Virus record (IMG/VR): IMGVR_UViG_3300020187_000010
Origin: a virus
DNA: 64,000 nt
Strand: one strand, 5' to 3'
Shown here: one piece after another, positions 2,858 to 24,885 of the stretch
Numbering within the stretch: the stretch's first letter is position 1
Layout: every line of letters begins with the position of its first letter
Made by a program: the position numbers and the translations under genes
The notes under the pieces: model-generated
The model's input: the letters and a program-made list of their open reading frames with translations, nothing else
Databases searched by the model: none
What the model was told of the DNA's origin: nothing

Positions 2858-3553
2858 TTATTCGTCTGAACTAATTTCTTCGAGTAAATCTTCGCGAAGT
2901 TCAGCGGATAGTTGGGAAGTATCGAAAGTGAAAGATACTGTACATCTCCAACAGTCAGTCTTCGCGGCATGATAGAACAATCTTTCGGGTTCACCGTAAT
3001 GACCAAAGTATGCTGCCTTGCACTGCCACCCTGGCTTATCTTCCATCACCACAACTTCTTTTGATATAGGATCTACATATTCGAATTGACCTTCTCCAGT
3101 TTCCGACCACGTGAAGATCAAATTATACGCTGCTGCATTTGCATTATTGTGCCAAGAGATAAAACCACCGGGCGGATACCATGCGGTTAGTGCATTATTT
3201 TTCACACCCAACCAATTCATAAGTCCTTGATTCATGTGCGCGAGTTCTGCGGTTCTATCTTTTCTTACCGAGGGATGAACCCCGTTATTGAAAAATTCAT
3301 GTCCCTTGCGACCAACACTCATTTCATAACCATACATCTGATCGGGAAATCCTTCGTGTCGGGTTCCTTGATCTAATATTTCTTCCAGATGACCTTTACC
3401 CGCCCAGAAATGTCTATTCCGTGATTCGTGAGAACAACTCTTATGAAATGTTTCCTCGAAGTCAGGGATATCTCTGGTCAAGAAATCTCGATAGGCATTT
3501 AATTTCACCAATAAGTCTTGGTTCATCACCGGAATGTCTTGCATATAACTCAT
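2858..3553 (-). CDS. Putative 2OG-Fe(II) oxygenase/cupin-like protein
   Basis: YPPGGFISWHNN...LIFTWS...FYHAA pattern resembling a double-stranded beta-helix with His ligands. Confidence 0.5.
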   Translation of the reverse strand: MSYMQDIPVMNQDLLVKLNAYRDFLTRDIPDFEETFHKSCSHESRNRHFWAGKGHLEEILDQGTRHEGFPDQMYGYEMSVGRKGHEFFNNGVHPSVRKDRTAELAHMNQGLMNWLGVKNNALTAWYPPGGFISWHNNANAAAYNLIFTWSETGEGQFEYVDPISKEVVVMEDKPGWQCKAAYFGHYGEPERLFYHAAKTDCWRCTVSFTFDTSQLSAELREDLLEEISSDE

Positions 3554-4284
3554 ATAATATATCCGTCCTTATCTAATCCACAGGAATAATGTCTGACAAT
3601 AACTTCACCTTCTGGTCTAGTCCTTGCCCAGTTGAATGCGTTATAATAGTTCCAACGCAAATCATCTTCCAAGATACCATACTTCAGGTCTTTGTATTTA
3701 GGTTCTTTCTCGGTCAACCACCAAAGACTGAACTGATCCCATGACCGAAGACTTTCTATATATCCTTCAGGCCACCAGTCACGATCCATTTGTCTGCGTG
3801 TGAGATCCCACCAATCATCCATGAACTCACGTACAATAGGTTTGGTCATATCGTAAAGTGCAACACCACCACATAGAGTGAACTTGGATGGGCCATCGGG
3901 AGTATCAAAACTTCTTTCGGCATAGACATATTCACGATCATCGGTCAATTCAGAGAATAAGATGTCTTCGTCACGTCTTTCCAATTCATCAAAACAAATG
4001 CGGATATCTTCGTGTTCCACTTCCATATCAACATCGAGGTACATGGTTAGGTCATATGGAGAACGAGCCATACCATCTAGTTTTGCACGGTAGTGGGATG
4101 AACACCATTCAACATTATCAAATAAATCTCGGTGTATTTCTTCGAACATCCACTCTTCGCAGAATAGTGTAATCTTCGCATCTTCGTAATAATCCAGAAT
4201 AGATTCTGCTAGATTGATCGCATACCGATAGAAGTTAATCTTATTCGATGCAACCAACACATAACCTTTAGACTTCTCAGACAT
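3550..4284 (-). CDS. GT-A fold glycosyltransferase
   Basis: SPYDLTMYLDVD (DxD), CGGVALY, WDQFSLW motifs; start taken at MSEKSKG. Confidence 0.75.
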   Translation of the reverse strand: MSEKSKGYVLVASNKINFYRYAINLAESILDYYEDAKITLFCEEWMFEEIHRDLFDNVEWCSSHYRAKLDGMARSPYDLTMYLDVDMEVEHEDIRICFDELERRDEDILFSELTDDREYVYAERSFDTPDGPSKFTLCGGVALYDMTKPIVREFMDDWWDLTRRQMDRDWWPEGYIESLRSWDQFSLWWLTEKEPKYKDLKYGILEDDLRWNYYNAFNWARTRPEGEVIVRHYSCGLDKDGYII

Positions 4285-4732
4285 CTTCCTCAACTCCAAG
4301 TTCTTCTTTTAAAAGCAACATAGCAAAAAGATTCGCTTCTACCTTGGACTTTGCTCGTCTAAGTTTAGACTTGAGTTTTCTGTTCTTAGAGTTTTTAATT
4401 TCTTCGGTTTCGAAGATTTCTAATTTATAGTTAAAGAGTTCTTCTAACTTACGTGCACGTGCGTGTTCCACATCACGTTGTTTATCTTCTTCTTTTTCGG
4501 CAGCTTTACGAATCTTACGGTCTTCGGTATTTCTATCTACAGACTCTTCACCTAAAGCATCAATGACTTCATTGAACAATTCATTTTCACTACCATCCTT
4601 ATTCTTGCGACTCAACATCATTACTTGTCGGGTCTCGCGATCCAGATCATCTTTCATTTCTAGGATACAGTTGAGTTTTTCTTTCTCCTCTGTTTCCCAG
4701 AACGCATTATCCATCCATCTTTTATAACTCAT
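4277..4732 (-). CDS. Hypothetical protein (charged, helical; possible chaperone)
   Basis: 151-aa ORF with GGAG SD; overlaps the downstream GT gene. Confidence 0.7.
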   Translation of the reverse strand: MSYKRWMDNAFWETEEKEKLNCILEMKDDLDRETRQVMMLSRKNKDGSENELFNEVIDALGEESVDRNTEDRKIRKAAEKEEDKQRDVEHARARKLEELFNYKLEIFETEEIKNSKNRKLKSKLRRAKSKVEANLFAMLLLKEELGVEEDV

Positions 4733-4760
4733 TTCAGTTCTCCAATTGTATATTATTTAC

Positions 4761-4789
4761 ATTATACTATATATCAAAAGATTAAGCAA
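4761..4789 (-). promoter_or_regulatory. Sigma70-type promoter TTGCTT-N17-TATAAT for the 4732/4284/3553 genes
   Basis: 17-bp spacer and perfect -10; overlaps the stop of the 1786-aa gene. Confidence 0.55.
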
Positions 4790-7700
4790 CCCTTACGTAC
4801 AAGGTATATGTCTCAATCACTCCTGTTCCGGAATCAACAGTTGTTCCGGTATAATTACCAGTAAAGTTTCTGGCATAATTTCCTGCGAATGTTCTACTAT
4901 AGTTACCCGCAAAACCTCTACTATAATTACCAGTAAAGTCACCTAAGTATGACGAGGTTCTAGTTCTAGTAGAATCTATGGTATATGCTGAATTTCGACT
5001 TCTACTAAAAGTGGATACTCTAGTTCGTGCAGAGGTTCTGACCGAAGTTCTTGAGTAGTCCCCAACAAAAGTTCTACTATAGTTACCAGTAAAGTCTCCG
5101 ACATAATTAGAAGATCGGGTTCTTGCATATTCACCAACAAAGGTTCTATTGTAGTTACCCACAAAGTTACCCGCAAAGTCTGAAGTAGAATCCCGAGTAT
5201 ATTCTCCTACAAAGTTTCTGTTGTAGTTACCAACAAAATCTCCTACGAAAGTCCGGCCATAATTACCACCAAATATTCTTGAGAAGTTACCAGTGTATTC
5301 TCCTACAAAATCAGTCGCACGAGTTCTTGCATATTCTCCCACAAAGTTTCTGTTGTAGTTGCCGACATAGTTACCCGCAAAACCTCTTGCATAGTTACCA
5401 ACAAATCCTCTATTGTAGTTACCGACAAAATTACCCGCGAATGTACTGATACTATTTCTTGTGTATTCCCCAACAAAAGTTCTATTGAAATTGCCGGTAT
5501 AATTACCCCCAAATCCACGATTGTAATTACCTGCGAATGCACGAGCATAGTCACCAATAAAGTTTCCAATAGAGTCGGTTACCCGAGTCCTAGAATAGTT
5601 ACCTGCGAATGCACGAGCATAGTTACCTTCAAATGCACGAGTCGAAGTGCGGAGAGATATACGGGTATAGTTACCAACGAATCCTCTATTATAGTTACCG
5701 ACAAAATTACCTGCGAATGTACTGATACTATTTCTGGTATAGTTTCCGGTAAAGGTTCTACCATAGTCACCAACAAAGTTTCCAATAGAGTCGGTTATAC
5801 GAGTTCTTGCGTAGGCAGATACACGATTACGAATATAAGACGATGCACGAGTACGTATATATGTGGATATTCTACTACGGGTCGATATACGAGTATATTC
5901 ACCAGTATAGTTGCCGGTGTAGTTGCCTGCAAATCCACGAGTATAATCACCAGTGAAATTACCTGCGAACGTGCGAGTATAGTTCGATGACAATGTGAGC
6001 ATATCAGTGATACTAGGACTTGCTGCGTTTGTAGTATCATCTACACGAGGTTCCCAGAACTGTTGATTGGTCGCGGTATCTGTTGAGTAATACAAGTATG
6101 TTCTGTGGTATGCAGTAGTGTTACCACTCCAGACAAAATCATTCTGAGCGGATACAACTTTCTCACCCGCCATATTATAGATACCAGAGTCAGCATGAGC
6201 CGCACCGGTACCAGAACCTTCGGGGAAAACGTGACCGACTACCAAAAACCATTCGTTTTGAGATTCGGTACCATACCACCAACCTCTCGCTTGGAAGTAC
6301 GGATTACTGTTAGATGCACCATTACTTCTGTTCAATACTGTTCCGCCAACACCAAGATAGAATGAACCATTACCAATAACTTTACGTCTTACCCATGTAG
6401 AGAATCTGTATAGTTTGGTTTTATCAACTGAGAAAGCTGAAGTATTCCAACCACCATCTGCATTAGATGTCGCATCTTGATTTGACACATCCCAAACGAT
6501 ATCAGTACCCTTCGGAGAAGTGTCGGAAATACGTGAGTTACCGTCCCCGTTCTGATTATAGTTAGTTGCAGAACCAGTACCAACTGTCCAAGCAGGAAAG
6601 TTCTGCCACAACAAGTTAGATTGATCTGAGTAACGTGTACCAGTTGTACCTACGAACTGAACGATACTATCACGAGTTGATGTACGAGTATACGTAGAAC
6701 TTCTGTTTTGAATACGAGTTCTTGTGTAATTACTAGGTCTACTGCGTGTAGATATTCTAATGTATGCGGATGATCTACTACGTGCCGATATACGAGTATA
6801 TGTGGAGAGACGGCCGCGGGTCGATGGGTTTATTGAAGTGCGAATATATGAAGAATTTCTACTACGGGTCGATATTCTAGTATACGCAGAGATGCGAGTT
6901 CGCGAATAGTCACCTATAAAGTTTCGCGAATAGTTTCCTATGTAGTCTCCGGTATAATATCCAATGCGAGTGTAGTCGCCTATGTAGTCACCTGCATAAG
7001 ATCCAATGCGAGTATAGTCACCCGTAAAGTCACCTGCGTAATATCCAATGCGAGTAAAGTATAATGGAGTTATTCTATTACGAATAGATATGCGAGTATA
7101 GTCTCCGGTATAGTACAATGTGCGAGTATAGTTACCGATGTAATATAGAGTTCGAGTATAGTCGCCTGTATAATACAATGTACGAGTATAGTTACCGGTG
7201 TAATATAGAGTTCGAGTATAGTCGCCCGTAAAGTTACCTATATAATATCCGGTTCGGATATAGGTATCGATTCGATTCGAAGTACGGGTACTTGTTCTAA
7301 TGTACGTACCGGTTCCAATTCTAGTACGTATAGATGTTCTGATATAATATCCGGTCGCAGTTCTGGTTCTCGAAGAATATCTCAGGTAATTCGCAACCCC
7401 CAAATAATCACCGGTATAATACACTGTCTGTTTAACTATTCGAGTATAGTCACCTACATAGTTAACTATTCTATTATAGTTACCTACAAAATTACCAACA
7501 TAATACAATGTACGAGTGTAGTTACCTGTGAAATTACCAATGTAATACAATGTACGAGTGTAGTTACCTGTGAAATCACCTGCATAATATGATGTACGTT
7601 GGTAGTATAATGTAGCAATTCTGTCTCTTATTGATATACGTTGGTAGTTACCAGTCGCAATTCTGGTACGAATATATGTTCCGGTGGCAGTTCTGGTACG

Positions 7701-10142
7701 AATATATGTTCCGGTGGCAGTTCTGGTTCTGATATAGTCACCAGTTGCAATTCTTATACGAGTATAATTTCCGGTATAGTTACCAGTATAGGTCGAATCA
7801 CGAGTATATGTTAAAATTCGACTACTAGTTCGAAGACTCGTTCGGATATAGTTGAGTGTGCGAACTGAAGTTCGAAGACTCGTTCGGATATAGTTGAGTG
7901 TGCGAACTGAAATACGTGTGCTGTTTCTGGTATATGCAGAAGGACGAGTACGGCCATATTCTCCTACGAACCCTCTATTATAATTGCCAGTATAATTGCC
8001 AGCAAACGCACGAGTATAATTTCCGGTATAGTTACCAATGTAGTTTCCGGCAAATGTTCTTTGGTAGTTACCAGTATAGTCGCCAGCAAACGCACGGTTA
8101 TAATTTCCGGTATAGTTACCAGCAAATGATCTACCATAGTCGCCGACATAATTACCGACAAATGTTCTTGCGTAATTACCACCAAAGTTACCGACATATC
8201 CTTGGAATCTGTCGCGAGTATATGTTACCAATGAATTCCGTGAAGAAATACGAGTGTAGTTGGAACCTCTTGTTCTTGCACTAATACGTGTTGATATACG
8301 AGAATAGTTGCCGGTATAGTCACCCGCAAACCCACGTGAATAGTTACCTATAAATGTTCTATTATAATTACCAACAAATGTTCTATTATAGTTACCAACA
8401 TAGTCACCGGTAAAAGTTACAAGTCTATCCCGAACATAATTGGAAACTCGGCCACGAGTGTAGTTACCAATAAAGTCACCGGTAAAGTCTGTTACTCGAT
8501 CACGTGTATATGCGGATATTCTCGTGCGTGTATAATTGCCTGTATAATTACCTGCATAATTAGAAACACGAATTCTTGCGTATGCAGAGATACGAGTACG
8601 GCCGTAGTTACCAACATAGTTACCGGTAAAAGTCGTTAGTTGATCTCTGGTGTATGTGGAGCTTCTAGTTCGGGTATATGCGGAGATACGAGTACGGGTA
8701 CTTATTCTAGAGTATGATGATACTCTGTTACGTGCATAGTTGCCAACAAAGTCGCCAATAAAGGATGTTACTCGATCACGAATATATGCACTGGTACGTG
8801 TTCGCGAATATGTTGATATGCGATTACGTGAGTATGTTCCTGCGTATGCGGATACTCTAGTACGGGAATAATCCCCAACAAAATTACCAATATAGTTTCC
8901 CGAAAACACGGTTGTGTATGTAGATGTTCTGTTACGAGTATATGTACTCAACCTGTTGCGAATACTATTTCTACTGTATGCAGATACTCTTGTTCTAGAA
9001 TAATTGCCTACAAAGTTACCTGTGAAAGTATTGATACTATCTCTGGTATATGCAGAAGATCTATTGCGAACATACTCGCCCACAAAGATTCTAGAGAAAG
9101 TATCAGTACTGTTTCTAGTGAAAGTTGAAGCACGGTTTCTTGTGTACTCACCTACGTAATTACCGACATACTCACCCACATAATCTCTGATATATTGTCC
9201 CGAAAAGTTTCGAGTGTAGTTGCCAATATAATTTCCACCAAAATCTCGGGTGAACGTATTTGTGCTATTACGAGTGTATAGTGAAGTTCTTGTTCTTGCG
9301 TATGCGGATGAACGATCACGAGTATAAGAAGATGCACGAGTACGAACATATGCAAGTTCTGAAGTTGTTCTTTTAGTATTGGTCGCAGTACCTTTTGCGG
9401 CCCAAGTTCCTGCACTTACCGGAGTTCCCTGAGTCGCAGATCTTAATTGGTAAGAACCAATATTACCCACCTTTCCCCTAAGAGTTTTACAGTGTTGTCC
9501 ATAAGTGTAAGTAATCTGGTTAACAGATTGTTCTTGTAATCCACCAAAACTGGCGGCAGAACCTGACCCAATCATACCAATCGGAGACGTGGCTGTCGGT
9601 GCAGTCATTGCATCACGTTGGTAGATATTGTATACTGTAGAAGTTCCGTTACCTAATGTATCTGTGTATACAGCGGGGATAAATGTACCATAGTCCGCAC
9701 TAGGTGCAGAAGAACCGAGGTAAAAGGTGCCTGGATAATCAGATATTGCAATACGTGCATTCAGACGAGTACATAAGGTATCCATATCTACATCAGTAAA
9801 TTCATGAATACCTACATCACCCGAAGTGTTCCAACCAACCGGTCTGTTATAAAAACTACCAGTATAGTTCGCATCATTAGATAGTTGTCTTAGATTAGTC
9901 GTAGTTGTGCCGGAAGTGATAGATGATGCGGGATGGGTACCATCAGGTTCATTGTAGAAAGTATCAACGAAAGAACCAATGATAGTACCACTAGAGAGAT
10001 GCAAGTCTCCCGCAGAAGAACCCGAAGAATTCTTTAGTTGAATACCTGCAAGATAGGCGAGATAGTTCTCTTCCGTAGGAGTCATCTCCTTCAGATCACC
10101 ATTCGTACCTTCTAACTTTAGTGGGATATCAGATGCGGCCAC
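4782..10142 (-). CDS. Giant self-complementary tetrad-repeat fibre protein (1786 aa) with inserted carbohydrate-binding-like domain
   Basis: N-terminal ~264 aa and C-terminal ETYTLYVRVA shared with the paralog at 10191-13277; residues 265-1767 are [YF]xG[ND]/[YF]xRx/RxSx tetrads; globular insert aa 1166-1386; late promoter upstream; sits in the tail module. Confidence 0.85.
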   Translation of the reverse strand: MAASDIPLKLEGTNGDLKEMTPTEENYLAYLAGIQLKNSSGSSAGDLHLSSGTIIGSFVDTFYNEPDGTHPASSITSGTTTTNLRQLSNDANYTGSFYNRPVGWNTSGDVGIHEFTDVDMDTLCTRLNARIAISDYPGTFYLGSSAPSADYGTFIPAVYTDTLGNGTSTVYNIYQRDAMTAPTATSPIGMIGSGSAASFGGLQEQSVNQITYTYGQHCKTLRGKVGNIGSYQLRSATQGTPVSAGTWAAKGTATNTKRTTSELAYVRTRASSYTRDRSSAYARTRTSLYTRNSTNTFTRDFGGNYIGNYTRNFSGQYIRDYVGEYVGNYVGEYTRNRASTFTRNSTDTFSRIFVGEYVRNRSSAYTRDSINTFTGNFVGNYSRTRVSAYSRNSIRNRLSTYTRNRTSTYTTVFSGNYIGNFVGDYSRTRVSAYAGTYSRNRISTYSRTRTSAYIRDRVTSFIGDFVGNYARNRVSSYSRISTRTRISAYTRTRSSTYTRDQLTTFTGNYVGNYGRTRISAYARIRVSNYAGNYTGNYTRTRISAYTRDRVTDFTGDFIGNYTRGRVSNYVRDRLVTFTGDYVGNYNRTFVGNYNRTFIGNYSRGFAGDYTGNYSRISTRISARTRGSNYTRISSRNSLVTYTRDRFQGYVGNFGGNYARTFVGNYVGDYGRSFAGNYTGNYNRAFAGDYTGNYQRTFAGNYIGNYTGNYTRAFAGNYTGNYNRGFVGEYGRTRPSAYTRNSTRISVRTLNYIRTSLRTSVRTLNYIRTSLRTSSRILTYTRDSTYTGNYTGNYTRIRIATGDYIRTRTATGTYIRTRTATGTYIRTRIATGNYQRISIRDRIATLYYQRTSYYAGDFTGNYTRTLYYIGNFTGNYTRTLYYVGNFVGNYNRIVNYVGDYTRIVKQTVYYTGDYLGVANYLRYSSRTRTATGYYIRTSIRTRIGTGTYIRTSTRTSNRIDTYIRTGYYIGNFTGDYTRTLYYTGNYTRTLYYTGDYTRTLYYIGNYTRTLYYTGDYTRISIRNRITPLYFTRIGYYAGDFTGDYTRIGSYAGDYIGDYTRIGYYTGDYIGNYSRNFIGDYSRTRISAYTRISTRSRNSSYIRTSINPSTRGRLSTYTRISARSRSSAYIRISTRSRPSNYTRTRIQNRSSTYTRTSTRDSIVQFVGTTGTRYSDQSNLLWQNFPAWTVGTGSATNYNQNGDGNSRISDTSPKGTDIVWDVSNQDATSNADGGWNTSAFSVDKTKLYRFSTWVRRKVIGNGSFYLGVGGTVLNRSNGASNSNPYFQARGWWYGTESQNEWFLVVGHVFPEGSGTGAAHADSGIYNMAGEKVVSAQNDFVWSGNTTAYHRTYLYYSTDTATNQQFWEPRVDDTTNAASPSITDMLTLSSNYTRTFAGNFTGDYTRGFAGNYTGNYTGEYTRISTRSRISTYIRTRASSYIRNRVSAYARTRITDSIGNFVGDYGRTFTGNYTRNSISTFAGNFVGNYNRGFVGNYTRISLRTSTRAFEGNYARAFAGNYSRTRVTDSIGNFIGDYARAFAGNYNRGFGGNYTGNFNRTFVGEYTRNSISTFAGNFVGNYNRGFVGNYARGFAGNYVGNYNRNFVGEYARTRATDFVGEYTGNFSRIFGGNYGRTFVGDFVGNYNRNFVGEYTRDSTSDFAGNFVGNYNRTFVGEYARTRSSNYVGDFTGNYSRTFVGDYSRTSVRTSARTRVSTFSRSRNSAYTIDSTRTRTSSYLGDFTGNYSRGFAGNYSRTFAGNYARNFTGNYTGTTVDSGTGVIETYTLYVRVA
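4842..9350 (-). repeat. 12-nt (4-aa) period repeat tract with nested 30/42/60-nt tandem duplications, interrupted at 5985-6647
   Basis: Direct reading, e.g. 42-nt tandem at ~7826-7910 and 30-nt tandem at ~7655-7730. Confidence 0.9.
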
Positions 10143-10190: not shown

Positions 10191-13100
10191 TTATGCGGTT
10201 CTTACATACAGAGTATATGTTTCAACTGAGAATGTAGTATCCCTAATAGTCTGACCCACGTAGTCTCCTACAAAGTCTCTGGAATAATTACCGGCAAAGT
10301 TTCTACTATAATTACCGGTATAGTTGCCGCCAAAATCTCTAGTACTTGTTCGAGTAGACTCTCTAGTATATGAAGATCCTCTAGTTCTGGTGTATGTAGA
10401 CCCACGATTTCTTATAAAGTTTGTATTACTTACACGGGTATAGTTGGAGTTTCTATTTCTGGTAAACTCACCAGTATAATCACCGACATAATCCGCAGCA
10501 TAAACTCCAACGTATGTAGATGCTCTTAAAGTTATGTATGACGAAACCCGAGATCTACTGAAAGAATCGAACCTTGTTCTGGCTGATATTCGTGTGAAAT
10601 CTCCGGTATAGTTGCCGCCAAAATCTCTTGTGTAATTACCTGCAAAGTTTCTTGAGTAAGACGATACCCGAGTTCTGATATATGTCGAATAACGATCATT
10701 TAAACTAACTCTGGTAAATAGACCTGCATAATTACCGGTATAGTTACCGGCAAAGTCTCTCGTATATTCACCGGTATAGTTACCAGTATAGAGTGAAACC
10801 CTAGTCCGTATATAATTACTGTTTCTTTCTCGGGTAAAGTCTCTTGCATACTGTCCCGAGAAAGTAGAAGACCTAGTCAGTATATAATTACTGTTTCTTT
10901 CTCGGGTAAAGTCTCTTGAATATTGTCCCGAGAAAGTAGAAGATCTAGATCTTATGTAACTAGAATCTCTATTTCTGGTAAAGTCCCTCGCATATTCTCC
11001 CGCAAAAGTAGAAGATCTAACTCTTATGTAATTCGAATTTCTAGTTCTTTCATAGTTTCTTGAGTATTCGCCAACAAACAATCTATTATAACTTGATACT
11101 CTGGCTCTTTCGAAGTTTCTTGAGTATTCCCCAGCAAACTCTCTAGAATAAGTAGATACCCGAGTCCTAGTAAATTCGCGAGTGAATCCCTGCAAATATG
11201 AACTGACTCTTGTGAAATCACCAATGTATGAAGGAACCGTCCTAGTAGCTATAAAGTCACCGGTATACGTAGCGGGGCCAGCAAAGTAAAGACCACCACC
11301 CGATTTGTCGTATCTGACAGAATTCACAAATCCCGCAAAAGTAGATGTACTGTTACGAGTATATTCTCCTCCCGGCAATCCCAAATAACCAGCACCCACA
11401 AAGTCTCTTGTGTAATCACCAGTATAGTATAAAGTACCTTTTAGGTATTCTGCACGAGCTCGTGTATAATTACTTACTCTAACACCACCATATGTGGATG
11501 TCGAAGTGCGTGTAAAGTTTAATGTTCGAGTGAAGTTGCCAATATATGTTGAGAAACGAGTTCTGCTGAAGTTTCTATTATATGTAGAAATTCTATCTCT
11601 TGTATAGTCACGTGCATATTCACCAACAAAGGCTCTATTATATGCTGAACTTCTATCTCTAGTGAAGTCACGTGCATAGTTACCAATATATGTGGCAGTA
11701 TAATTGCCAGTGTAAGTTGATGACCTAATTCTAGTGAAGTCACGTGAATATTGTCCAGAGAAAAATCTGGAGTAATTGCCAGTGTAAGTTGATGACCTAA
11801 TTCTAGTGAAGTTACGTGCATATTGTCCAGAGAAAAGTCTGGTATAATCGCCAGTGTAATTAGAATTTCTAATTCTAGTGTAGTCACGTGCATATTGTCC
11901 AGAGAAAAATCTGGTGTAATCGCCAGTGTAATTAGAATTTCTACTTACTATTCTTGTTCTGGTATAGGTAGATGTTCTAGCACGTGTCGAGATTCGTGTA
12001 TATTCACCTACATAGTTACCAGCATAGTTGCCAAGAAACATTCTAGTATAGTTGCCGGTAAAGTCTCTGGAATAATTAGATGTACGAGTTCTACCATAAG
12101 CCGATTCCCGAGTCCGTGTGAAGTCTCTGGTATAATTGCCTGTAAATTCACCGGCATATGAACTGATACGTGTCGCTATGAAATCTCTAAAAAAGGTACG
12201 TGAAAAGTTGCGACTGAAGTTACCTGTGTAATTTCCAATATAGTTGCCTGTAAAGTCTCTAGAATAGTCTCCGACAAAAGTTCTACCATAGTCGCCAGTA
12301 AAATCACCGGTATAATTGCCCGTAAATTCTCTGGTATAGTTTCCTATAAATTCTCTGGTGTAATTGCCTGTGAATTCACCGGCATATGAAGTTGTCCCTG
12401 TGCGAGTGTAATCATCAGCGTAAGCCGAAGGTCTAGTTCTCGTGTATAAAGATGCTCGTGTGCGAGTATAGTTCTGTTCACTGACAACACGAATGGTGTT
12501 TGCAGCACTACCTACATTCTTCCAAGTACCACCGACAGGTATACCCTGCGAAGAAGTTCTAAGTTCATATGATCCGACCGCACCATCAATTGCACGTCTG
12601 GTTTTCGCACGTTGACCAATAGTCACTTGAACTTGACGATCTGTTAATGCTTGTAATCCTTCATAAGTACCAGAGGCGCCACTACTTCTCTTCAGTCCCG
12701 CGAGAGTGACCGAAGTTGGAGCAGTCATTGCAGTTCTACGCCATATACTATAGTCATTTACAGTATATGGGTTCCCCGAAGAGTCAGCACGTTGATCATG
12801 CAAAACACTAGGGACTAGAATGTCATAGTCTGCACTAGGTCTGGTCGAAGACAACTTGAGAGAGCCTGGATAGTCAGATAGTGCGATACGACCATTGATA
12901 TCATCGATGAAAGTGTTCAGATCATTATCCGACATTTCATATACATTACTTTCATAATGTCCGACTGGTTTTCTCCAATCACTATCATTCTCTAGTGCGG
13001 TACCATTGATCTGATATAAATTTGTTGTGGTGGTAATAACCGATTGGGCATTATATGGATGAGTTCCAACGGGTTCTGGATAATAGGTATCCGTCAGAGA

Positions 13101-13277
13101 TCCAAGAGACCTATTTCCACTTGCACTGAGCGTAAGAAGCCCTACATCGCTACTGTCCGCAATTGCGTTCTGTAGTCCTGCGAGGTAGGCAACATAATTT
13201 TTCTCGGTTGCATTTATCTGTTGGAGATTACCATTAATGTCTTTTAATTTTAACGGTAATGTCTTATTATCTGACAT
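10191..13277 (-). CDS. Self-complementary tetrad-repeat fibre protein, paralog (1028 aa)
   Basis: LPLKLKDINGNLQQINATEKNYVAYLAG vs IPLKLEGTNGDLKEMTPTEENYLAYLAG; repeats aa 270-1009; C-terminal ETYTLYVRTA. Confidence 0.85.
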   Translation of the reverse strand: MSDNKTLPLKLKDINGNLQQINATEKNYVAYLAGLQNAIADSSDVGLLTLSASGNRSLGSLTDTYYPEPVGTHPYNAQSVITTTTNLYQINGTALENDSDWRKPVGHYESNVYEMSDNDLNTFIDDINGRIALSDYPGSLKLSSTRPSADYDILVPSVLHDQRADSSGNPYTVNDYSIWRRTAMTAPTSVTLAGLKRSSGASGTYEGLQALTDRQVQVTIGQRAKTRRAIDGAVGSYELRTSSQGIPVGGTWKNVGSAANTIRVVSEQNYTRTRASLYTRTRPSAYADDYTRTGTTSYAGEFTGNYTREFIGNYTREFTGNYTGDFTGDYGRTFVGDYSRDFTGNYIGNYTGNFSRNFSRTFFRDFIATRISSYAGEFTGNYTRDFTRTRESAYGRTRTSNYSRDFTGNYTRMFLGNYAGNYVGEYTRISTRARTSTYTRTRIVSRNSNYTGDYTRFFSGQYARDYTRIRNSNYTGDYTRLFSGQYARNFTRIRSSTYTGNYSRFFSGQYSRDFTRIRSSTYTGNYTATYIGNYARDFTRDRSSAYNRAFVGEYARDYTRDRISTYNRNFSRTRFSTYIGNFTRTLNFTRTSTSTYGGVRVSNYTRARAEYLKGTLYYTGDYTRDFVGAGYLGLPGGEYTRNSTSTFAGFVNSVRYDKSGGGLYFAGPATYTGDFIATRTVPSYIGDFTRVSSYLQGFTREFTRTRVSTYSREFAGEYSRNFERARVSSYNRLFVGEYSRNYERTRNSNYIRVRSSTFAGEYARDFTRNRDSSYIRSRSSTFSGQYSRDFTRERNSNYILTRSSTFSGQYARDFTRERNSNYIRTRVSLYTGNYTGEYTRDFAGNYTGNYAGLFTRVSLNDRYSTYIRTRVSSYSRNFAGNYTRDFGGNYTGDFTRISARTRFDSFSRSRVSSYITLRASTYVGVYAADYVGDYTGEFTRNRNSNYTRVSNTNFIRNRGSTYTRTRGSSYTRESTRTSTRDFGGNYTGNYSRNFAGNYSRDFVGDYVGQTIRDTTFSVETYTLYVRTA
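10251..12470 (-). repeat. 4-aa period repeat tract with 72-nt (24-aa) tandem duplications in both halves
   Basis: 72-nt repeats at ~11700-11940 and ~10800-11040. Confidence 0.9.
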
Positions 13278-13291
13278 TCTCTTTCCTACTA

Positions 13292-16200
13292 TTAGTTTAG
13301 AAGAGTACCGTTTTCGTCATAGATTAAGACAGTTCTAGATGCCAGTTCATTTAACGCTTTAACAATACTATCATTATTTATACCTTCAAAGAAGTTGCCT
13401 GGCGCAGAACTGTCAAGTGTATTCAACTGACCAACTCGATTACTCAAGTTTAGAATGTCTGTGTCATTACTTGTGACTCTACCCTTTACGACTTCAATTT
13501 CACCAACCGCACTATCCAGTTGGGTGTGGATCTCATTGATAGCCGGAACAATAAACTTACTTGTTGTATCCAGTGTGGAGATACCTGTTCCTGACATGTT
13601 CGCAGTTGTACCACCGGACTGTATAATGTCCAGATGCGCACGGGTTATAAGTTTCTCGGACTCTATCTCGGTAACTGCACTATCTAGTTGCAAATGAAGT
13701 TCATTGATACCACCCGCAACATCTTGTGCGGTAGTGTCTAGATCTTCGTCAGTGTGGAATGCACGACCATGTATCTCTACCTTAGTTGCATCCATTTCGA
13801 TTGCAAGACCAGTACCAGAATAAATGTCCAGATGATTGCCAGAGTTTCGGAATTCACCAAACTGAACGGTTGCATCTTTAAGGAATACATTACCACCGTC
13901 TGCATCAAGTGTAATATCACCGGAGACATCATACGTCAGATTTCCTACAACATCAACTTCTTGGTTTGTACCAAGGTTATAGGTGAACTTAGTTACACCG
14001 CCATCCTTGAAGAAGATGTCCGCGCCATTCGCGTCAAGTGTAATATCACCTTCTGCATCAAGAAGAATATTTGTTCCTGCATTGATGGTTGCAGTTGTTC
14101 CTGCGGTAGTAGATGTAGATCCACCGGCAGTCTGTACAATACTACCTGTAGTAGTCAGACCATACGAGTCCGCACTATCATTTAATGCACCGATGATAGC
14201 ATTTACTAATGTGCCACCAACAGTAGTAGTTTTGTTTACAGTAATATTCTCTTTTACCGAACCACCAATAGTTAGACTATAACCATTTGTAGTAGTCAAA
14301 GATGCAGAATCACTTACCGATATATTATAATCTCCGGTAACAGTGATGTTGTTTGTTGCACCTAATTGATGACGGATGCGTGTGGATGCACCGTCTTTGA
14401 AGTAAATGTCGTTTCCATCTGCGTCAAGTGTAATATCACCAGAAGCATCGATCAAGTAATTACCATCTGCTGTATGGGTTTGTCCCAATGATGTTGTGGT
14501 CAATGTACCCAAAGTAGTATGAGACATTGCACCACTAGAAGTAACTGAGTAAGTACCACCAGCACTATCAGATTGGTTACCTGATACAGTTTGTGTAAGA
14601 TTACCGTTAACATCTAAAGTGTTTGACGCACCCATTCCATATGAGAAACGAGAAGTACCTGCATCTTTGAAGTCGATGTCTCCACCGTCTGCATCCAGTA
14701 CTATATCACCTGCCACATCGACAGTTAAGTTGCCGGTGGGTACGTCAATCTCTTGATTCGCACCCATAACGAAGTCGAATCTGATCGCCCCATTATCTTT
14801 AAGTGTAACATTACCGCCATTTGCATCAAGGTTAATATCACCCTCAACATCTGCGGTTAGGTTACCACCAGCGGTAAGACCCATGTTTGATTCAGTAACA
14901 AGATTGAACGCACCACCCGCAGTATTCGTCATCGGGCCACGAGTGTCGATATTAATACCGTTAGTCGAAGAGATGTCACGAGTACCAGAAGCACTGTCAG
15001 AGTGATCTCCTGCCACTGTAAGGGTGTTGTTACCCGAAGTAGTAGTAGTGAGTGTACCTGTAACATCTAAAGTATTTGCTGAACCCAGTCCGTAAGCAAA
15101 ACGAGTCGTTCCAGCTTGTTTGAGGTCAATGTCACCACCACCGGCATCCAATACAATATCATTGACAACATCAAAGATCAACGAACCGACAACATCAATC
15201 TCTTGATTCGTACCGAAATTATATGTTACCTTATTGGCACCACCATCTGTTAGATATAGTTGTCCACCATCAGCATCGAGAGTAATATCTCCAGATGCAT
15301 CAACAGTGAAGTTTCCCGCCACATTATGGGTTTGTCCCAATGATGTTGTGGTGAGAGTACCAAGAGTGGTATGAGACATCGCACCAGTTGAGGTGATGTC
15401 ACGAGTACCATTTGCACTGTCTGAGAAGTTGCCTGAGACGGTTTGAGTTAGATTACCTGTAATGTCTAAGGTATTAGATGCACCAAGTCCGTATTCAAAT
15501 CTAGATACTCCACCGTCTTTTAGGTCGATGTTTGCGCCATCTGCGTCTAATATAATATTACCAGACACATCAAGAGTATAATTGCCAGTTACGGCTTCGG
15601 TGTTAGTGGTACCCATCGTATATGCAATACGAGTAACACCACCATCTTTGTATGTAATGTTTGCCCCATCTGCATCGAAGATTATATCACCCGAGATGTC
15701 AAATGTCAAGTTTCCGGTACGAGAAACTGTACCGTCAGTAGCAAAGTCGTACTCTGTGACACCAGCATCTTTGAATGTGACATTACCACCATCAGCATCA
15801 AGGATAATATCTCCGGACGCATCGACAGTGTATGTGGTCGTTTCTATTCTAGTTGCACCGGTAGAGGTAAGAGTTGTATCACCAGATACATCGATATCTA
15901 AGTTAGAAGAAATATCAAGATCAAGGATACCAGTCACACCAACTGTGTTAGTGGTACCTAATGTGAATGCAATACGACTGACCGAATCATCAAGGAAGTT
16001 GATGTTAGATCCACCGGCATCTAAATTAATATCACCTACCGCATCAACGTTGAAGTTTGCACCGACATTGAATTGTACATCAGTACCACTTGCTTGATTA
16101 GTACTGATTAGTAAACGAGTTTGAGTTTCCCCTTGGAGGGCATTTCCCGTAGGATAAATGATTTCACCGGAAGATGCGTCAAACACTCTTTCGATTTCGT

Positions 16201-16333
16201 TGATGGCCATGACCACATCACTATCACCGTGAGTGAGAAGATCCACCGGATCGCCAACATTATAAGAGACAGTGTTGAGGTTGTCTCGCATTATCTTGAA
16301 CGAGTCACTTAGTTTCGTAAATGGTCTTGACAT
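13292..16333 (-). CDS. Acidic repeat-rich tail fibre/virion protein (1013 aa)
   Basis: 11 copies of D[AV]SGDI.LDADG..[VI].[FL]KD.G; several (V/A).AINE[IL] fibre motifs at both ends. Confidence 0.75.
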   Translation of the reverse strand: MSRPFTKLSDSFKIMRDNLNTVSYNVGDPVDLLTHGDSDVVMAINEIERVFDASSGEIIYPTGNALQGETQTRLLISTNQASGTDVQFNVGANFNVDAVGDINLDAGGSNINFLDDSVSRIAFTLGTTNTVGVTGILDLDISSNLDIDVSGDTTLTSTGATRIETTTYTVDASGDIILDADGGNVTFKDAGVTEYDFATDGTVSRTGNLTFDISGDIIFDADGANITYKDGGVTRIAYTMGTTNTEAVTGNYTLDVSGNIILDADGANIDLKDGGVSRFEYGLGASNTLDITGNLTQTVSGNFSDSANGTRDITSTGAMSHTTLGTLTTTSLGQTHNVAGNFTVDASGDITLDADGGQLYLTDGGANKVTYNFGTNQEIDVVGSLIFDVVNDIVLDAGGGDIDLKQAGTTRFAYGLGSANTLDVTGTLTTTTSGNNTLTVAGDHSDSASGTRDISSTNGINIDTRGPMTNTAGGAFNLVTESNMGLTAGGNLTADVEGDINLDANGGNVTLKDNGAIRFDFVMGANQEIDVPTGNLTVDVAGDIVLDADGGDIDFKDAGTSRFSYGMGASNTLDVNGNLTQTVSGNQSDSAGGTYSVTSSGAMSHTTLGTLTTTSLGQTHTADGNYLIDASGDITLDADGNDIYFKDGASTRIRHQLGATNNITVTGDYNISVSDSASLTTTNGYSLTIGGSVKENITVNKTTTVGGTLVNAIIGALNDSADSYGLTTTGSIVQTAGGSTSTTAGTTATINAGTNILLDAEGDITLDANGADIFFKDGGVTKFTYNLGTNQEVDVVGNLTYDVSGDITLDADGGNVFLKDATVQFGEFRNSGNHLDIYSGTGLAIEMDATKVEIHGRAFHTDEDLDTTAQDVAGGINELHLQLDSAVTEIESEKLITRAHLDIIQSGGTTANMSGTGISTLDTTSKFIVPAINEIHTQLDSAVGEIEVVKGRVTSNDTDILNLSNRVGQLNTLDSSAPGNFFEGINNDSIVKALNELASRTVLIYDENGTLLN

Positions 16334-16571: not shown

Positions 16572-19500
16572 TTATACTGCCAGTGATATAATTCTCAAGT
16601 CACGGAATGAAGGTACTTTCGCACTGTTGGTCGATCTCATAACAATCTTAACTTGGAACTGTGTGAATGGTGACATAGTACCACCATCACCACCTACAAG
16701 ATAACGGTATTCACGGAACACGTTCTTGTTAGTATCAACTGGTAGAACGGTTTCAGAATTAACCAGAGTCCATGCAGATCTCTTAATGTCATCACCCGCA
16801 CTTGCGACTTTCCAATAAACTTGGAAGTCTGACTCAGGAGGTCTATTCGCAGCAAGTAAGATCTTCAGTCCAACAGCCTGTTCGGTAAGAGTTGTTATTT
16901 TAGTAACATGTTTTGCAGACTCAGTACCATATAGAGGGTTAGTTTCACCGACATAAGATAATGGTACATTGAAACCATCCGTAGACGAAGAATCTTGTCT
17001 AGAGATCATGTTGTGAATAGTGTTCAACTTACAACGTTGTAAATCAATGACTGGAGACAAGTATGGATTGGTTGTCTTCAATGTTAACTGTACAGTAGCA
17101 GATCTCTCGCCATTGAGTTTACCTGCGGTTGACAGATTCTCGGTGCGTCTGTTAAATAGTGCACGAGGATTTGTGAACTCATTATTCTTCTTGTTCTCAA
17201 TGATGTTATATGAACCATCTTTAACAAATCGAACTTGACTTCCTGCCAATGCGGACTGACTAGTAGTCTTAATCGACATAGTGTAGTTAGTCTCGCCTGG
17301 TTGTTTGATATCAATCTCGGGTCTCAATACTTCGAAGTTCATGTTTCTCTGAGAAGTTACAGAAGAACCACCGAACCACTTACGAGAGGTCGCAGATGAA
17401 GTTGCAGCATAGGTGTAACCAGAGTTATCAAAATCGATAACAGTACGTACCCCATTAACATCTGCACCGGTCAAACCGTTACCAAAGTCAGTTGCAGAGT
17501 CGATACCTCGAATCCAAGTCTTATCACCATCTCTAAGGCCATGACCTTTGAACATAACACGTACTGTGTTAGATCCAGAATCCACTACCAAAGGATCTTT
17601 AGACAAAGATACTGGAGGTATGTTTGCATTCTCAAGGATAGCATTACCAGAGGTTTCAAACTTAGCAACATTGATTCTGTATGAAAGATCTTGACCACTA
17701 GAAGGTTCCCACAATTTAGCATTCTGAGATTTAAAGAATCCACCCAGAGTTGTTTGTTGTGAGATGAACGCTTCGTTAGAGTTCAATTGGTGTTCACCGA
17801 CAGTTGCAACATATACGTTATAGTCCGGATCATTGTTGCCCGGTCTTAGTACGAGTGCATACTCTCCACCCGCAACAAATACCGGATGATCAAATGTAAA
17901 CGTAGTAGCATTCTGCAACATTTGTTTGTTGGTAGATCCTTCTGGAACAAGAGATACTTGACTTGCAGATAATTTCTTAGTTGCAATAATCTTACTTGAA
18001 GACGGAACGCCATTCACAGTAGGTCTCAACTCACAGAATACAGGAGCAGAAGAAGACTTACTTGCAAAGTAAACATCAACAGATGTAATGAATACACCGG
18101 CAATTTGTTTAACCAAGAAGGTCTGCGCGATTGGATCGTTATATTCTAGTCTATTATTGGTATGTCTGTAATTGATACCACCTTTACCCTGTCGAGTAGT
18201 TCTTTCTACTGGAGTTAGGTCGGCATCAGTCACCGCACCGCCCGGAGGAACTGTAGTGTCTGTTACATGATCTACCGGAGTGATTTGGTTGAGATAATTT
18301 ACCTCAGAAGTTTCACCAACATGTTCTGTAGATGATGTGGTATCACCGACCAGAGTAGAATATGTTTCGGTAGATACTACATCTGTAGCAATTTCTGTCG
18401 AGATAACAGATTCAGTCCATACAGTTGAACTTGAAGCAATTGTTCTATCAACATCACTGGTACTGTTACCTACGATTTTAAGTACGCGAGTTACTTCGAC
18501 TTCATCTTCATACTCTTCGAGAACACCTTTAGAGTGGAACATTGCTCTACCATAAGACATTGCAGCACTGAAGTCATTGACATTTACGTCAAGTAATGCA
18601 AACTCACGAGGCCCTGTGTAGAAACGCATTGCTTGGTTGTTAGGTACTTCGAACGAACCAATAATACTACCTTCTGCGTCAGATATAAGGTTGGTCTTAC
18701 CAGAACTATGTTCTTGGGTAGTACGTTGAACACCTTCACCATCTTCAGTACTTTTAGATGCAAGGTAATTGCGTTGAGCCCAAGTACTGAACGTAGTCTG
18801 TTCCCTACAGAAAGAAGATACGTTAGAACCATCAAAGAATGGGAAGTACTGTGTATTAGGACGCAGACCTTCAGCTTTGAATTGAATATCAATCGAACGC
18901 ATGAAAGGAATGACCGATACATCGATAACCTTTTTACCAACTACGTCACGAATAGTAGACTCACTCGCAATACGGTTTACTGTATTGGAAGTTGTTGTTG
19001 TTGTTGTGGTATCCGTAGTAGACTCATACGCATTTTCAGTTTCGATTGTGCGTGTGGTTTCATAAGTAGATGTGTTAACAGTCTTAACTTTATCTCTAGT
19101 TTCGGTAGTAACAACATCCCACATATCAGTGGTAATTTGTTCGGCAGTCCAAGGGTTGTAATAACCATATGAATAAGAACCTGTTCCACCTAAGCCAAAG
19201 TAAGAACCAGACCAGTTACCAGTCCAACCACCCCAATAGTTATGGTTCCACCAAGAATCTATTACTGTACGTGAGATTTCTTCTTCACGTTCACGTGATA
19301 CTTCTACAGTTTCGGTATAAAGAGTTTCAACATCAGTCACATGACCGACTTCAACCCACTCACCGAGAGTTTCGGTTGTCTCGGTACCAATAAGAACAGG
19401 ATCTGAACTATTGTGTGTTATCGAAGTTGCGGTACCACTTACAAATGAAGTTGCAGCATCACCAGCTTCTAGGTCAGAAGGATCTACACCAAACCATTCG

Positions 19501-22463: not shown

Positions 22464-23834
22464 CTAGATAGTAATTACGATTTTCAGGTCTTCGGTTTGA
22501 TCGGTGGATCGCGTTACAGCTGAACGGTTATCAATATATAGTAGATCCCCAGTGTACGGATTAAACTCACCGTCTACTTTACTGGTTATCGAACCGTTAA
22601 TATTTGTGTTACCTACCACCTGAATTTCTTCTGCAACTTGGAAGGAAGTGAATCCAGTTGTTTCGTTTTGATGATACCAGATTGTATCCGAATCATTAGT
22701 GTTGTCGATGATTGCAACTGCGCCAGAAGTAACACCTTGAATCTGAGATTTTTGCACAATAGACTTGACAAATCCTGATCCATCGTGTATAATACTATTA
22801 AGTGCCAGAGCGGAAGTAGATGTAAGTAAAACACCTTCTGCACTATCAACTCTTGGATTGCGTACCAATAACACTTGACGGAATATCTCGTCACCAGTAA
22901 TAAAGTCACCGTTTTCAATACCATCTGGTTTGGAGTTAAACATAACACCATTTGCCTTCAGGTCAATAACAGGATTAGATCCAACACCAGATGCTTGTCC
23001 CAATACAGGACGAACAATACAAGAGTCACCACCACCACCAGAAATTAATACGTTTGCATAGTCGTAACCACTACCAAAGTAAGAGTTGCCCGAGTTACCC
23101 GCAGAGTCGGCCTTGACCTTGATGTCTACGATAGTCTCACCCGCACGTACCGCATAAGCAATCGCACCAGTACCATTACCTACGATACTTACCGAAGGTG
23201 CAGATGTATAACCAGATCCACCATTAGTTACTTTATAACCAACGATTTGTCCTTTTACCGCAGCGTTCTGGACTAGTTGTTGTTGTAGATCTTCGGCAGG
23301 AGAATCCGAGTCGGTTGAACCAACAAATCTTACAGGCATATATGCAGATGACAAAAACTTATCTGCACGTAATGCACCGATAGAGTAAAGGAACTTCCAC
23401 GTGTAACCATCCGCAGTACGGAATGGTGTACCGGTAGTGTTACCAGTAGGTTGGTTGGTAGATAACTGCGAAGAACCATCCTGTTTCTTACCCTGTTCCA
23501 AACAGATGTAAATCTCGTTATTCGAGTTGATTACATAGAAAGGATTCTCGGGGAAACCTACATCGTTATCATCATATGCAGAGTAGATAAGGTTAGCAAC
23601 CCATATTCTACGTGGAATTACATATGAGGCATCTTCGATGAGTTTTGCAGATTGCAAAGAATTTCTTGCCTGTCTGACAGAACGTGAATCATTAGTAGGA
23701 ACAGTCGCAAGATCAGAAGCATTCCAATCTTCGGATCTACCAATGGCCGCATAGTATCTTACAGAAGAAGAGTCCAAGTCCGTAAGAAGATCATCTAAGA
23801 CCTGTTTTTTAAATTGATCGGTAATTACTGGCAT
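22464..23834 (-). CDS. gp8: Baseplate wedge subunit gp8-like
   Basis: YAAIGRSEDW, IPRRIW, FYVINSNNEIYICL, DGYTWKFLY, YIDNR..VTRS.DQTEDLKIVI. Confidence 0.85.
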   Translation of the reverse strand: MPVITDQFKKQVLDDLLTDLDSSSVRYYAAIGRSEDWNASDLATVPTNDSRSVRQARNSLQSAKLIEDASYVIPRRIWVANLIYSAYDDNDVGFPENPFYVINSNNEIYICLEQGKKQDGSSQLSTNQPTGNTTGTPFRTADGYTWKFLYSIGALRADKFLSSAYMPVRFVGSTDSDSPAEDLQQQLVQNAAVKGQIVGYKVTNGGSGYTSAPSVSIVGNGTGAIAYAVRAGETIVDIKVKADSAGNSGNSYFGSGYDYANVLISGGGGDSCIVRPVLGQASGVGSNPVIDLKANGVMFNSKPDGIENGDFITGDEIFRQVLLVRNPRVDSAEGVLLTSTSALALNSIIHDGSGFVKSIVQKSQIQGVTSGAVAIIDNTNDSDTIWYHQNETTGFTSFQVAEEIQVVGNTNINGSITSKVDGEFNPYTGDLLYIDNRSAVTRSTDQTEDLKIVITI

Positions 23835-23847
23835 TTTTTATATATTC

Positions 23848-24849
23848 CTACGAAGTTGTTACGTTATCAGTTTTATTTATCACAATCCACTGAGTCCCAA
23901 ACCACATCAAAGTAACAGATTCGTTCTGTGGTAGTATAAGACTTGCATACGCAGCAAGATTACTTGAAGTTTCGTTAATAGTTTGTGTACCCGCACCTTT
24001 ATTAACAAGATATTTAACTTCACCATTTAGTCCAGATGTACCACTCGCTAAACTGTGTGCACCGGTAGTACTATTGGTGAATAATGTTATTGGTGAATTT
24101 GCACTTACAGTACCACCACCTGTCGAAATACCCTGTGTTTTTAATACAAGTTTAGAGTCAACTTTAACTCCACCATTACCCGAACCCTTGAGTGATAGTG
24201 CGGAGTTTGGTTCACCCGCAGCTTGCACTATTGCAGGTACGCTAGTGGGGGAGTTACCAATTCGAATAAAGTTTGTTGCAGAACCGGAGTCTTGGAATTG
24301 TATTAATTCGTTACCCGCACTATCAAGAATCTCTTTACCGATAACCGGAGAGTTAAGAGTAGGATTCTGAAGTGTCTTGTTCTTTAATATTGCGGTGTGG
24401 TCATTAAATACAAAAGTATCTGCCGCACCCAACAGTGGTAATGTAATTGTTCTATTCGCAGCCAACTCATTCACTGCAACCACATATCTGTGATTCGATG
24501 AAGTGTCATTAATCTGTGGGGTAGTCAAAATAGGACTTAGTAAAGTCTTGTTAGACAATGTTTGTGTTGCAGAGTCCATAACCAATGCACCAGAATAGTT
24601 CGGTATTGTAACCGTGTTATCTGCTGTTGGGTTAGCGACTTGCAAACGAGTCTCAAAATTGTTCTCGACAGATCCTTCGAATATAATACCCGAAGAGTCA
24701 AAGTCGATCAACGCCATCAGAGATGCACCATCTCCAAGTTTGCTGTAGATCTCTTGGAAGTTTTGTTCAATCTTCAACGATGCAGTACGAAGTGTATCAC
24801 CCGTACCATCGTTCGCGATTGTGCCTCTGTTTAATACTTGTCTAGTCAT
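23848..24849 (-). CDS. Baseplate protein with T4 gp9/gp10-type N-terminus
   Basis: MTRQVLNRGTIANDGTGDTLRTASLKIEQNFQEIY; TLSNKTL repeats. Confidence 0.8.
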   Translation of the reverse strand: MTRQVLNRGTIANDGTGDTLRTASLKIEQNFQEIYSKLGDGASLMALIDFDSSGIIFEGSVENNFETRLQVANPTADNTVTIPNYSGALVMDSATQTLSNKTLLSPILTTPQINDTSSNHRYVVAVNELAANRTITLPLLGAADTFVFNDHTAILKNKTLQNPTLNSPVIGKEILDSAGNELIQFQDSGSATNFIRIGNSPTSVPAIVQAAGEPNSALSLKGSGNGGVKVDSKLVLKTQGISTGGGTVSANSPITLFTNSTTGAHSLASGTSGLNGEVKYLVNKGAGTQTINETSSNLAAYASLILPQNESVTLMWFGTQWIVINKTDNVTTS

Positions 24850-24877
24850 TCTCTTTTTACCTAAAGATTATATGTTC

Positions 24878-24885
24878 TATTTATA
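24878..24885 (-). promoter_or_regulatory. T4-type late promoter TATAAATA
   Basis: Exact consensus upstream of 24849. Confidence 0.7.

Follow-up and report, generated by a model that had tools for sequence, protein, structure and literature searches.

How can a very long protein of low complexity hold two arms in one register? This question is raised by a putative tail-fibre gene on the minus strand of IMG/VR virus record IMGVR_UViG_3300020187_000010, of which a stretch of 64,000 nucleotides (nt), called the window below, was analysed. The gene encodes a protein of 1786 amino acids (aa) that the original prediction, made from the sequence alone, had described as written like a stem-loop, with two arms of exactly 638 residues that complement each other through a code of four-residue units. 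The analysis described here indicates that the protein is likely to form a baseplate-anchored, antiparallel fold-back shaft, whose register is fixed by the aperiodic order of its units and whose return arm carries a domain resembling carbohydrate-binding ones.

The parse into tetrads was confirmed for aa 265-1767, which correspond exactly to nt 4842-9350. From aa 265 onward, the units are of three kinds, [YF]xG[NDE], [YF]xRx, and units that begin with Arg or Ser, with six-residue units interspersed near the tip. The position given for the turn, aa 903-908 at nt 7419-7436, is likewise exact. Both arms measure 638 residues once an insert of 221 residues (aa 1166-1386) is removed from the return arm, as had been claimed. 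The units of aa 265-902 were aligned with the reversed units of aa 909-1165 plus 1387-1767, and a pair was scored as obeying the rule if YxR faced YxR (class R) or a Gly unit (class G) faced an Arg/Ser unit (class S). This reverse alignment contains 44 R/R, 42 S/G, and 41 G/S pairs, with no S/S and only five G/G pairs. The arms are thus complementary: the rule is obeyed in 127 of 159 unit pairs, including 109 of the first 121. The high level of pairing expected in those first 121 pairs was found; the deviants number 12 rather than the roughly 10 counted earlier.

The register is also unique. Tetrad offsets of ±1 to ±12 leave 28-60 rule-obeying pairs as compared to 127 at the true register, and 20,000 global shuffles give a mean of 44.4 (standard deviation 5.4) and a maximum of 69. 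Expressed per unit, about 80% are satisfied at the true register and 18-39% after any slip. The order of the units is aperiodic, and therefore only one register satisfies the rule. Shuffling the S and G labels within blocks of 6-40 tetrads affords means of 91-109 and a maximum of 121. The observed score is higher still, so the match exceeds what periodicity or block composition can provide.

The same register was recovered by an anti-diagonal scan of the whole protein in which the arms were not assumed, aromatic or Gly residues facing Arg or Ser being rewarded and like-like pairs penalised. Exactly two segments stand out in this blind scan, 267-643/1388-1764 (score 178) and 645-891/919-1165 (score 137); the next best scores 47. 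The residue sums of the two segments are 2031 and 1810, and their difference, 221, is the length of the insert. At this register jump, the gap on the outbound side is zero. The single sharp register that had been anticipated therefore stands against offsets, shuffles, and a blind search alike. These data support the proposal that an antiparallel constraint, with i + j constant, ties the two arms together in one register.

Identical scoring on parallel diagonals peaks at 50, which bears on a different reading, in which the chain would form a parallel beta-helix or solenoid, as in gp5C or gp12, and the reverse match would be incidental. T4 gp5C-type triple beta-helices are indeed comparable in that a short repeat containing Gly-Asn/Asp occurs in a baseplate-associated fibrous protein (PMC3004832). 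The succession of Gly-Asn/Asp and an extended stretch in the arms resembles the gp5 beta-helix octapeptide (PMC3004832), and AlphaFold without an alignment places low-confidence local strands, short and with periods of 10 and 14, near the tip. However, gp5C and gp12 have a strict eight-residue period and parallel, in-register chains, whereas the spacing of unit types here is irregular (8, 12, or 16 residues), leaving no constant period, and the constraint is antiparallel. Parallel diagonals show weak complementarity (50 versus 178), and a solenoid gives no reason for a constant i + j over 638 pairs or for compensating changes between the arms. A solenoid shaft is accordingly very improbable.

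The location of the code within the unit is well defined. Facing residues correlate only at unit positions 1 and 3, most strongly when position 1 faces position 3 and vice versa (z = 28 and 39), so the information lies on one face of the extended chain. A code on one face fits cross-strand neighbours in an antiparallel ribbon, the geometry proposed for the chain. At the best register, the pairs comprise 95 Tyr-Arg, 41 Gly-Arg, 35 Phe-Ser, and 29 Gly-Ser, which are those named in the original prediction (Arg with Gly, and Tyr or Phe with Arg or Ser). The main exceptions are 17 Gly-aromatic pairs. Gly units of the Phe type lie opposite RxS and those of the Tyr type opposite SxR (Fisher p = 3.5e-8). 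The pairing persists in the tip-proximal repeats of 10 and 14 residues, where the small residues of Ala-Thr-Gly face Tyr-Tyr-Leu, and extends to residues 904/906 around Gln905. Simple volume complementarity was dropped as an account of the code: Tyr and Arg are both large, and Gly and Ser are both small.

A pattern of this kind might have no structural meaning and simply be left over from an ancient inverted duplication or follow from composition gradients or repeat periodicity. Arg/Ser units are more frequent in the N-terminal half and Gly units at the C-terminal end, and the GC (guanine-cytosine) skew flips sign inside the gene, from -0.14 at 4001-6000 to +0.04 at 6001-8000. The latter change arises because the base-proximal return arm is rich in Gly (GGN codons) and is not a replication feature. 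An origin in a nucleic-acid palindrome or inverted duplication was rejected: the gene holds many direct repeats and a single 22-nt inverted pair, which is at chance level. Against arm 2, the three antisense translations of arm 1 reach 47-58 and shuffled controls 45-57, so there is no resemblance, whereas a same-sense comparison of the arms gives 1077. The arms are complementary rather than identical, local shuffles that preserve block composition fall well below the observed score, and the pattern is kept in diverged relatives with different unit orders. An explanation without structural meaning is therefore hardly credible. Nor could misassembly of repeats be the source of equal-length arms in register over 1276 residues.

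The arms also carry duplications that correspond across the hairpin. The 30-nt tandem arrays of the outbound and return arms, at aa 792-831 and 968-1017, face each other at the sum of 1810. The presence of facing arrays on both arms suggests that length changes are fixed only if both arms change. A perfect 42-nt duplication at 7827-7910 (aa 745-772) faces a 42-nt array at 6943-7101, the copies of which are only 60-83% identical.

To place the protein in its family, relatives were collected by searches with the whole protein and with its N-terminal domain. This domain, of about 260 residues, is common to 330 clusters at 50% identity (E ≤ 1e-3), 146 of them at E ≤ 1e-30. The family members share their ends: all 176 complete proteins, 362-3118 aa in length, have the N-terminal domain and finish with ETYTLYVR plus two residues. 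The terminal motif, ETYTLYVR[TIV][AS], is almost invariant in these 176 proteins, and the stretch between it and the N-terminal domain is variable. The 1786-aa protein itself, denoted P0001, ends ...IETYTLYVRVA, with the motif at aa 1777-1786 (window positions 4785-4814).

Complementarity is conserved in this family. An end-anchored register was defined as one that places the first residues after the N-terminal domain opposite those that immediately precede the terminal motif. In 31 of the 176 complete relatives, this register (sum minus length of 234-270) holds the best anti-diagonal, as compared to 3.9 expected. These self-complementary proteins span 436-1786 aa, and the value for P0001 is 245. 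Their unit orders differ, so the arms must change in a compensating way, as do the strands of RNA stems. When all outbound arms were compared with all return arms, the top score went to the proper partner in 12 of 19 proteins, with a lead that was usually two- to threefold. The arms of homologs thus vary together rather than independently, each protein being self-complementary in its own unit order. Covariation across homologs, which had also been proposed as a check, was found in part. Anchored cross-family covariation peaks, weakly and broadly, at the expected register, with a mean corrected mutual information of 0.061 at a-b = 5 versus ≤ 0.02 far away, which lends modest support. Raw residue mutual information at the anchored register was discarded; it looks enriched (47 of 123) yet fails on P0001, because the four-residue phase dominates. 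Mutual information conditioned on this phase works on P0001, on P0194, and on the paralog described below.

Among 50,697 records of cultured phages, the family occurs in phage C48C1 only. Its homolog there, annotated as hypothetical (L001:5439-15482, OQ984149), is a self-complementary protein of 3347 aa. It contains an inner hairpin of 417 residues that encloses a small domain at the tip and, at the homolog of the 221-aa insert, a 359-residue jump on the return arm with an outbound gap of zero. The globular inserts of the C48C1 protein lie in the return arm or at the tip, and at least four further ones are present in the return arm only. The protein also has a tandem duplication of the last ~60 residues of a lectin-like domain together with the units that follow, ~aa 2016-2075 being repeated at 2083-2157. 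The N-terminus of the 1786-aa protein aligns with that of the C48C1 protein and with that of a tandem paralog encoded by the next gene upstream (10191-13277). In the paralog, the arms are 272-570/708-1006, and 57 of 76 unit pairs obey the rule versus 23.9 ± 3.8 in shuffles. The paralog has a 137-aa non-repeat tip region, and its C-terminal end reads ...SVETYTLYVRTA. The nearest virus record (G001:C1:80404-84826, L002) encodes an identical N-terminal domain, and its contig ends inside the fibre gene. Assemblers evidently often break in such repeats, and many database copies of the family are therefore truncated.

A second line of evidence comes from the ends of the chain. AlphaFold2 was run with an alignment of 54 members on P0183, a relative of 436 aa. 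The N-terminal domain is modelled with a predicted local distance difference test (pLDDT) score above 90, and long, confident strands at 260-286 and 406-434 form the two feet of a hairpin. The terminal ETYTLYVR strand is modelled as one long strand (pLDDT 84-97), and the structural alignment of the domain, with a range of 43-436 that denotes the first and last aligned residues only, reaches the last residue. This alignment points to a terminal strand that is part of the N-terminal domain. Should the first 260 residues indeed make up one domain with the last dozen, everything between them would have to go out and return. This closed-ends argument covers the whole family and is independent of the pairing code. 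Comparison of the N-terminal domain with beta-prism/MABP-type (MACPF C-terminal) domains gives weak matches, with VIA Z scores of 7.1, 6.8, and 5.9 over 115-123 residues against a caution line of 8, and the Atlas language model gives a weak lead to Gp10_C. A Foldseek search of the P0183 model against the PDB returned nothing at E ≤ 0.001.

A chain that goes out and returns could also pair with a neighbour, either in a head-to-tail antiparallel dimer that lacks a turn or in a domain-swapped trimer in which the outbound arm pairs with the return arm of the next chain. A constant i + j fits an antiparallel homo-oligomer equally well, tail fibres are in general usually trimers, and a monomer model cannot separate a swapped terminal strand from the chain's own. 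However, a head-to-tail dimer would carry anchors at both ends of the rod and bury its tip modules in the middle. Some other family members have a globular domain placed precisely at the turn, where a distal receptor-binding tip would be expected, and the pairing reaches right to an apex of 1-3 residues. A swapped trimer, for its part, would itself remain a fold-back fibre. We consider pairing between chains to be improbable.

Several observations weigh against the intramolecular fold-back shaft or narrow its scope. Unit positions 2 and 4 are without pair correlation (z ~1), and the Phe/Tyr refinement of the code could be partly a consequence of a unit's place within a run of like units. The 1276 arm residues include 185 Arg, 59 Asp/Glu, and no Lys, His, Cys, Met, or Trp; the resulting net charge of +126 is an unusual load for a compact bundle. 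Family-wide, a phase-conditioned, code-agnostic test does no better than chance (13 of 112 versus 11 expected), so pairing is claimed only for the Tyr/Phe-Gly-Arg-Ser subfamily. Members with other alphabets seem complementary by eye, for example FxGT versus FETT and VRDVN versus PQPQN. The middle of the P0183 hairpin stays below pLDDT 50 even with an alignment, and an AlphaFold2 model without an alignment of the tip-centred residues 645-1165 has a mean pLDDT of 29.5, which makes it unusable; the arm contacts were not seen in it. An ESMFold2 complex of segments 541-644 and 1387-1490 as two chains scored 0.00, a result that weighs neither way.

Our analysis allows a fold to be proposed for the shaft. 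The chain would leave the 264-residue N-terminal domain, run outward for 638 residues, turn at residues 903-908, and come back antiparallel over another 638. The last strand, ETYTLYVR, would then rejoin the N-terminal domain and close the loop. We infer that the arms form a beta-ribbon in which the coded residues are in direct contact, that they pair within one chain without swapping, and that the product serves as a fibre. Positions 1 and 3 of the tetrads would share one face, where Tyr would lie opposite Arg, Phe opposite Ser, and Gly opposite Arg or Ser. The aperiodic order of the three unit types would act as a register lock for a very long structure of low complexity. A slip by one unit or more would create Gly-Gly voids, set Arg/Ser units opposite each other with like charges (Arg-Arg), and bring aromatic residues into clashes, so the lock would avert the many mispairings otherwise open to a repetitive chain of such length. 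Folding could begin either at the turn or where the N-terminal domain clasps the terminal strand. Globular modules could be spliced in without disturbing the pairing, in the return arm here and at the tip in relatives. With fully extended strands, the shaft would be about 200 nm long.

The module in the return arm is the 221-aa lateral insert. It resembles structural proteins of Vibrio phage virions and is 48% identical to residues 595-801 of P0090, a multi-LamG protein whose three PF13385 (Laminin_G_3) domains lie outside the matching segment. A search of aa 1155-1386 gave no Pfam match at E ≤ 1, and the Atlas search of the insert gave viral clusters and a lead to CBM_4_9 (0.93). These similarities make a carbohydrate-binding beta-domain probable, and the insert probably serves as a receptor-binding knob mounted on the side of the shaft, some 257 residues away from the tip.

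Table 1. Coordinates in the window of the fibre gene, its parts, and neighbouring features.
Feature	Position	Strand	Remarks
Tail-fibre gene, fold-back family	4782..10142	minus	GTG start, 1786 aa; within T4-like baseplate/fibre module
N-terminal globular domain, aa 1-264	9351..10142	minus	presumed baseplate anchor
Outbound arm, aa 265-902	7437..9350	minus	638 residues of tetrad units
Turn, aa 903-908 (VKQTVY)	7419..7436	minus	pairing register up to 904/906, Q905 at apex
Return arm, tip-proximal, aa 909-1165	6648..7418	minus	faces aa 645-901 (sum 1810)
Lateral globular insert, aa 1166-1386	5985..6647	minus	221 aa; without counterpart on outbound arm
Return arm, base-proximal, aa 1387-1767	4842..5984	minus	faces aa 265-644 (sum 2031)
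C-terminal tail, aa 1768-1786, and stop codon	4782..4841	minus	ends ETYTLYVRVA
30-nt tandem array, 4 copies, outbound arm	7651..7770	minus	aa 792-831; families D13, D8
30-nt tandem array, 5 copies, return arm	7093..7242	minus	aa 968-1017; D8; partner of 7651-7770
Tandem paralog, 1028 aa, next gene upstream	10191..13277	minus	same N-terminal domain, tetrad arms, and C-terminal motif
gp5/VgrG-like spike, 1013 aa	13292-16333	minus	DUF2345 and gp5 C-terminal match
Baseplate wedge subunits	22464-27842		
Second gp5-like hub/lysozyme protein, 478 aa	28935-30371	minus	matches hub and lysozyme
LtfC-like fibre-assembly chaperone	2426-2800	minus	

The genes around the fibre gene are those of a T4-like myophage tail module, with baseplate wedge, hub, and fibre-chaperone genes (Table 1) and, further along, genes for a tape-measure-like protein and a tube cap. 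Among cultured phages, C48C1 (Kyanoviridae) is nearest, with 41% identity in the wedge protein, followed by Pelagibacter and Methylophilales myophages. A search with the whole fibre protein found no Pfam family and only a marginal PHROG match. By phmmer against all PDB chains, there was no match to the protein at E ≤ 1, gp37 and other solved fibres included.

Directly downstream of the fibre gene, at 2858-4732 on the minus strand, are three small genes for proteins of 151, 249, and 231 aa, whose order and sizes are kept downstream of the C48C1 homolog. None of the three has a Pfam or PHROG match, and they could be assembly factors or accessories of the fibre. A 663-aa protein encoded at 206-2197 on the minus strand (phrog_15769), with a Thr/Gly/Asp-rich repeat of ~70 residues, adjoins the gene for the LtfC-like chaperone. 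The fold-back signal is absent from this protein, which is probably an additional fibre of conventional type. The one baseplate module has two separate gp5-like hub/spike genes (13292-16333 and 28935-30371). Between the spike and wedge genes, 16572-22454 on the minus strand encodes a 1960-aa protein that matches phrog_358 and phrog_877, both of unknown function.

The closest structural parallel is the needle of T4 gp37, which is about 15 nm long. In this needle, the receptor-binding tip of the T4 long tail fibre protein (Bartual et al. 2010, PDB 2XGF), the chain reportedly runs to the tip and returns. The resemblance is one of topology only and, on our side, is inferred from sequence: the chain would reverse at the distal tip, both ends of the segment would be proximal, and the phage is T4-like. 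Unlike those of the needle, the arms here are about ten times longer, carry an aperiodic pairing code, and have no sequence match to a solved structure. The gp37 needle has HxH motifs that bind seven iron ions in the trimer (PMC6957217). In the 1276 arm residues, His and Cys are both absent and HxH motifs do not occur; the defining metal sites of the needle are therefore missing.

Other comparisons concern the ribbon and the code. The ultralong CDR-H3 (third heavy-chain complementarity-determining region) antibodies of cattle have a two-stranded beta-ribbon stalk of about 10-15 residues per strand, with no register code. Cross-strand pairing of aromatic residues with glycine is said to have been described by Merkel and Regan in 1998 as 'aromatic rescue of glycine'. 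The proposed shaft would resemble these in being an exposed antiparallel ribbon with a tip knob, aromatics alternating on one face, and long side chains opposite Gly; it differs from the CDR-H3 stalk in its 638 residues per arm and its register code. The likeness to an RNA or DNA stem-loop is conceptual and lies in the pairing alphabet, the unique register, the matched bulges, the compensating changes, and the duplications matched on both arms. Here, however, the alphabet would consist of side-chain pairs on one peptide face, and complementarity at the nucleic-acid level is absent.

Literature searches found no described fibre that is fold-back, self-complementary, or pairing-coded. The evidence implies a phage tail fibre with a fold-back shaft, a long out-and-back kind of fibre that has not been described before. 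Whether it stands for a new class of fibrous protein is, in our estimation, evenly balanced. Such a class would be defined by a register-coded antiparallel ribbon with a small side-chain alphabet (Tyr-Arg, Phe-Ser, and Gly-Arg/Ser), about 200 nm long here and possibly more than 300 nm in C48C1. It would evolve like a stem, by compensating substitutions and matched duplications on the two arms, and would accept receptor-binding domains at the tip or in the return strand.

If the structure is as proposed, it would add a building principle to the coiled coil, collagen, the beta-helix, and the beta-spiral, one in which an aperiodic sequence code sets the register of a very long two-stranded element. 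The register of the fold could then be read from sequence, a protein counterpart to covariation analysis of RNA. The principle also suggests a programmable design scaffold of chosen length, with insertion points that spare the shaft. Without a Pfam entry and almost absent from cultured phages, the 330 clusters would define a large family of host-recognition fibres of marine T4-like phages.

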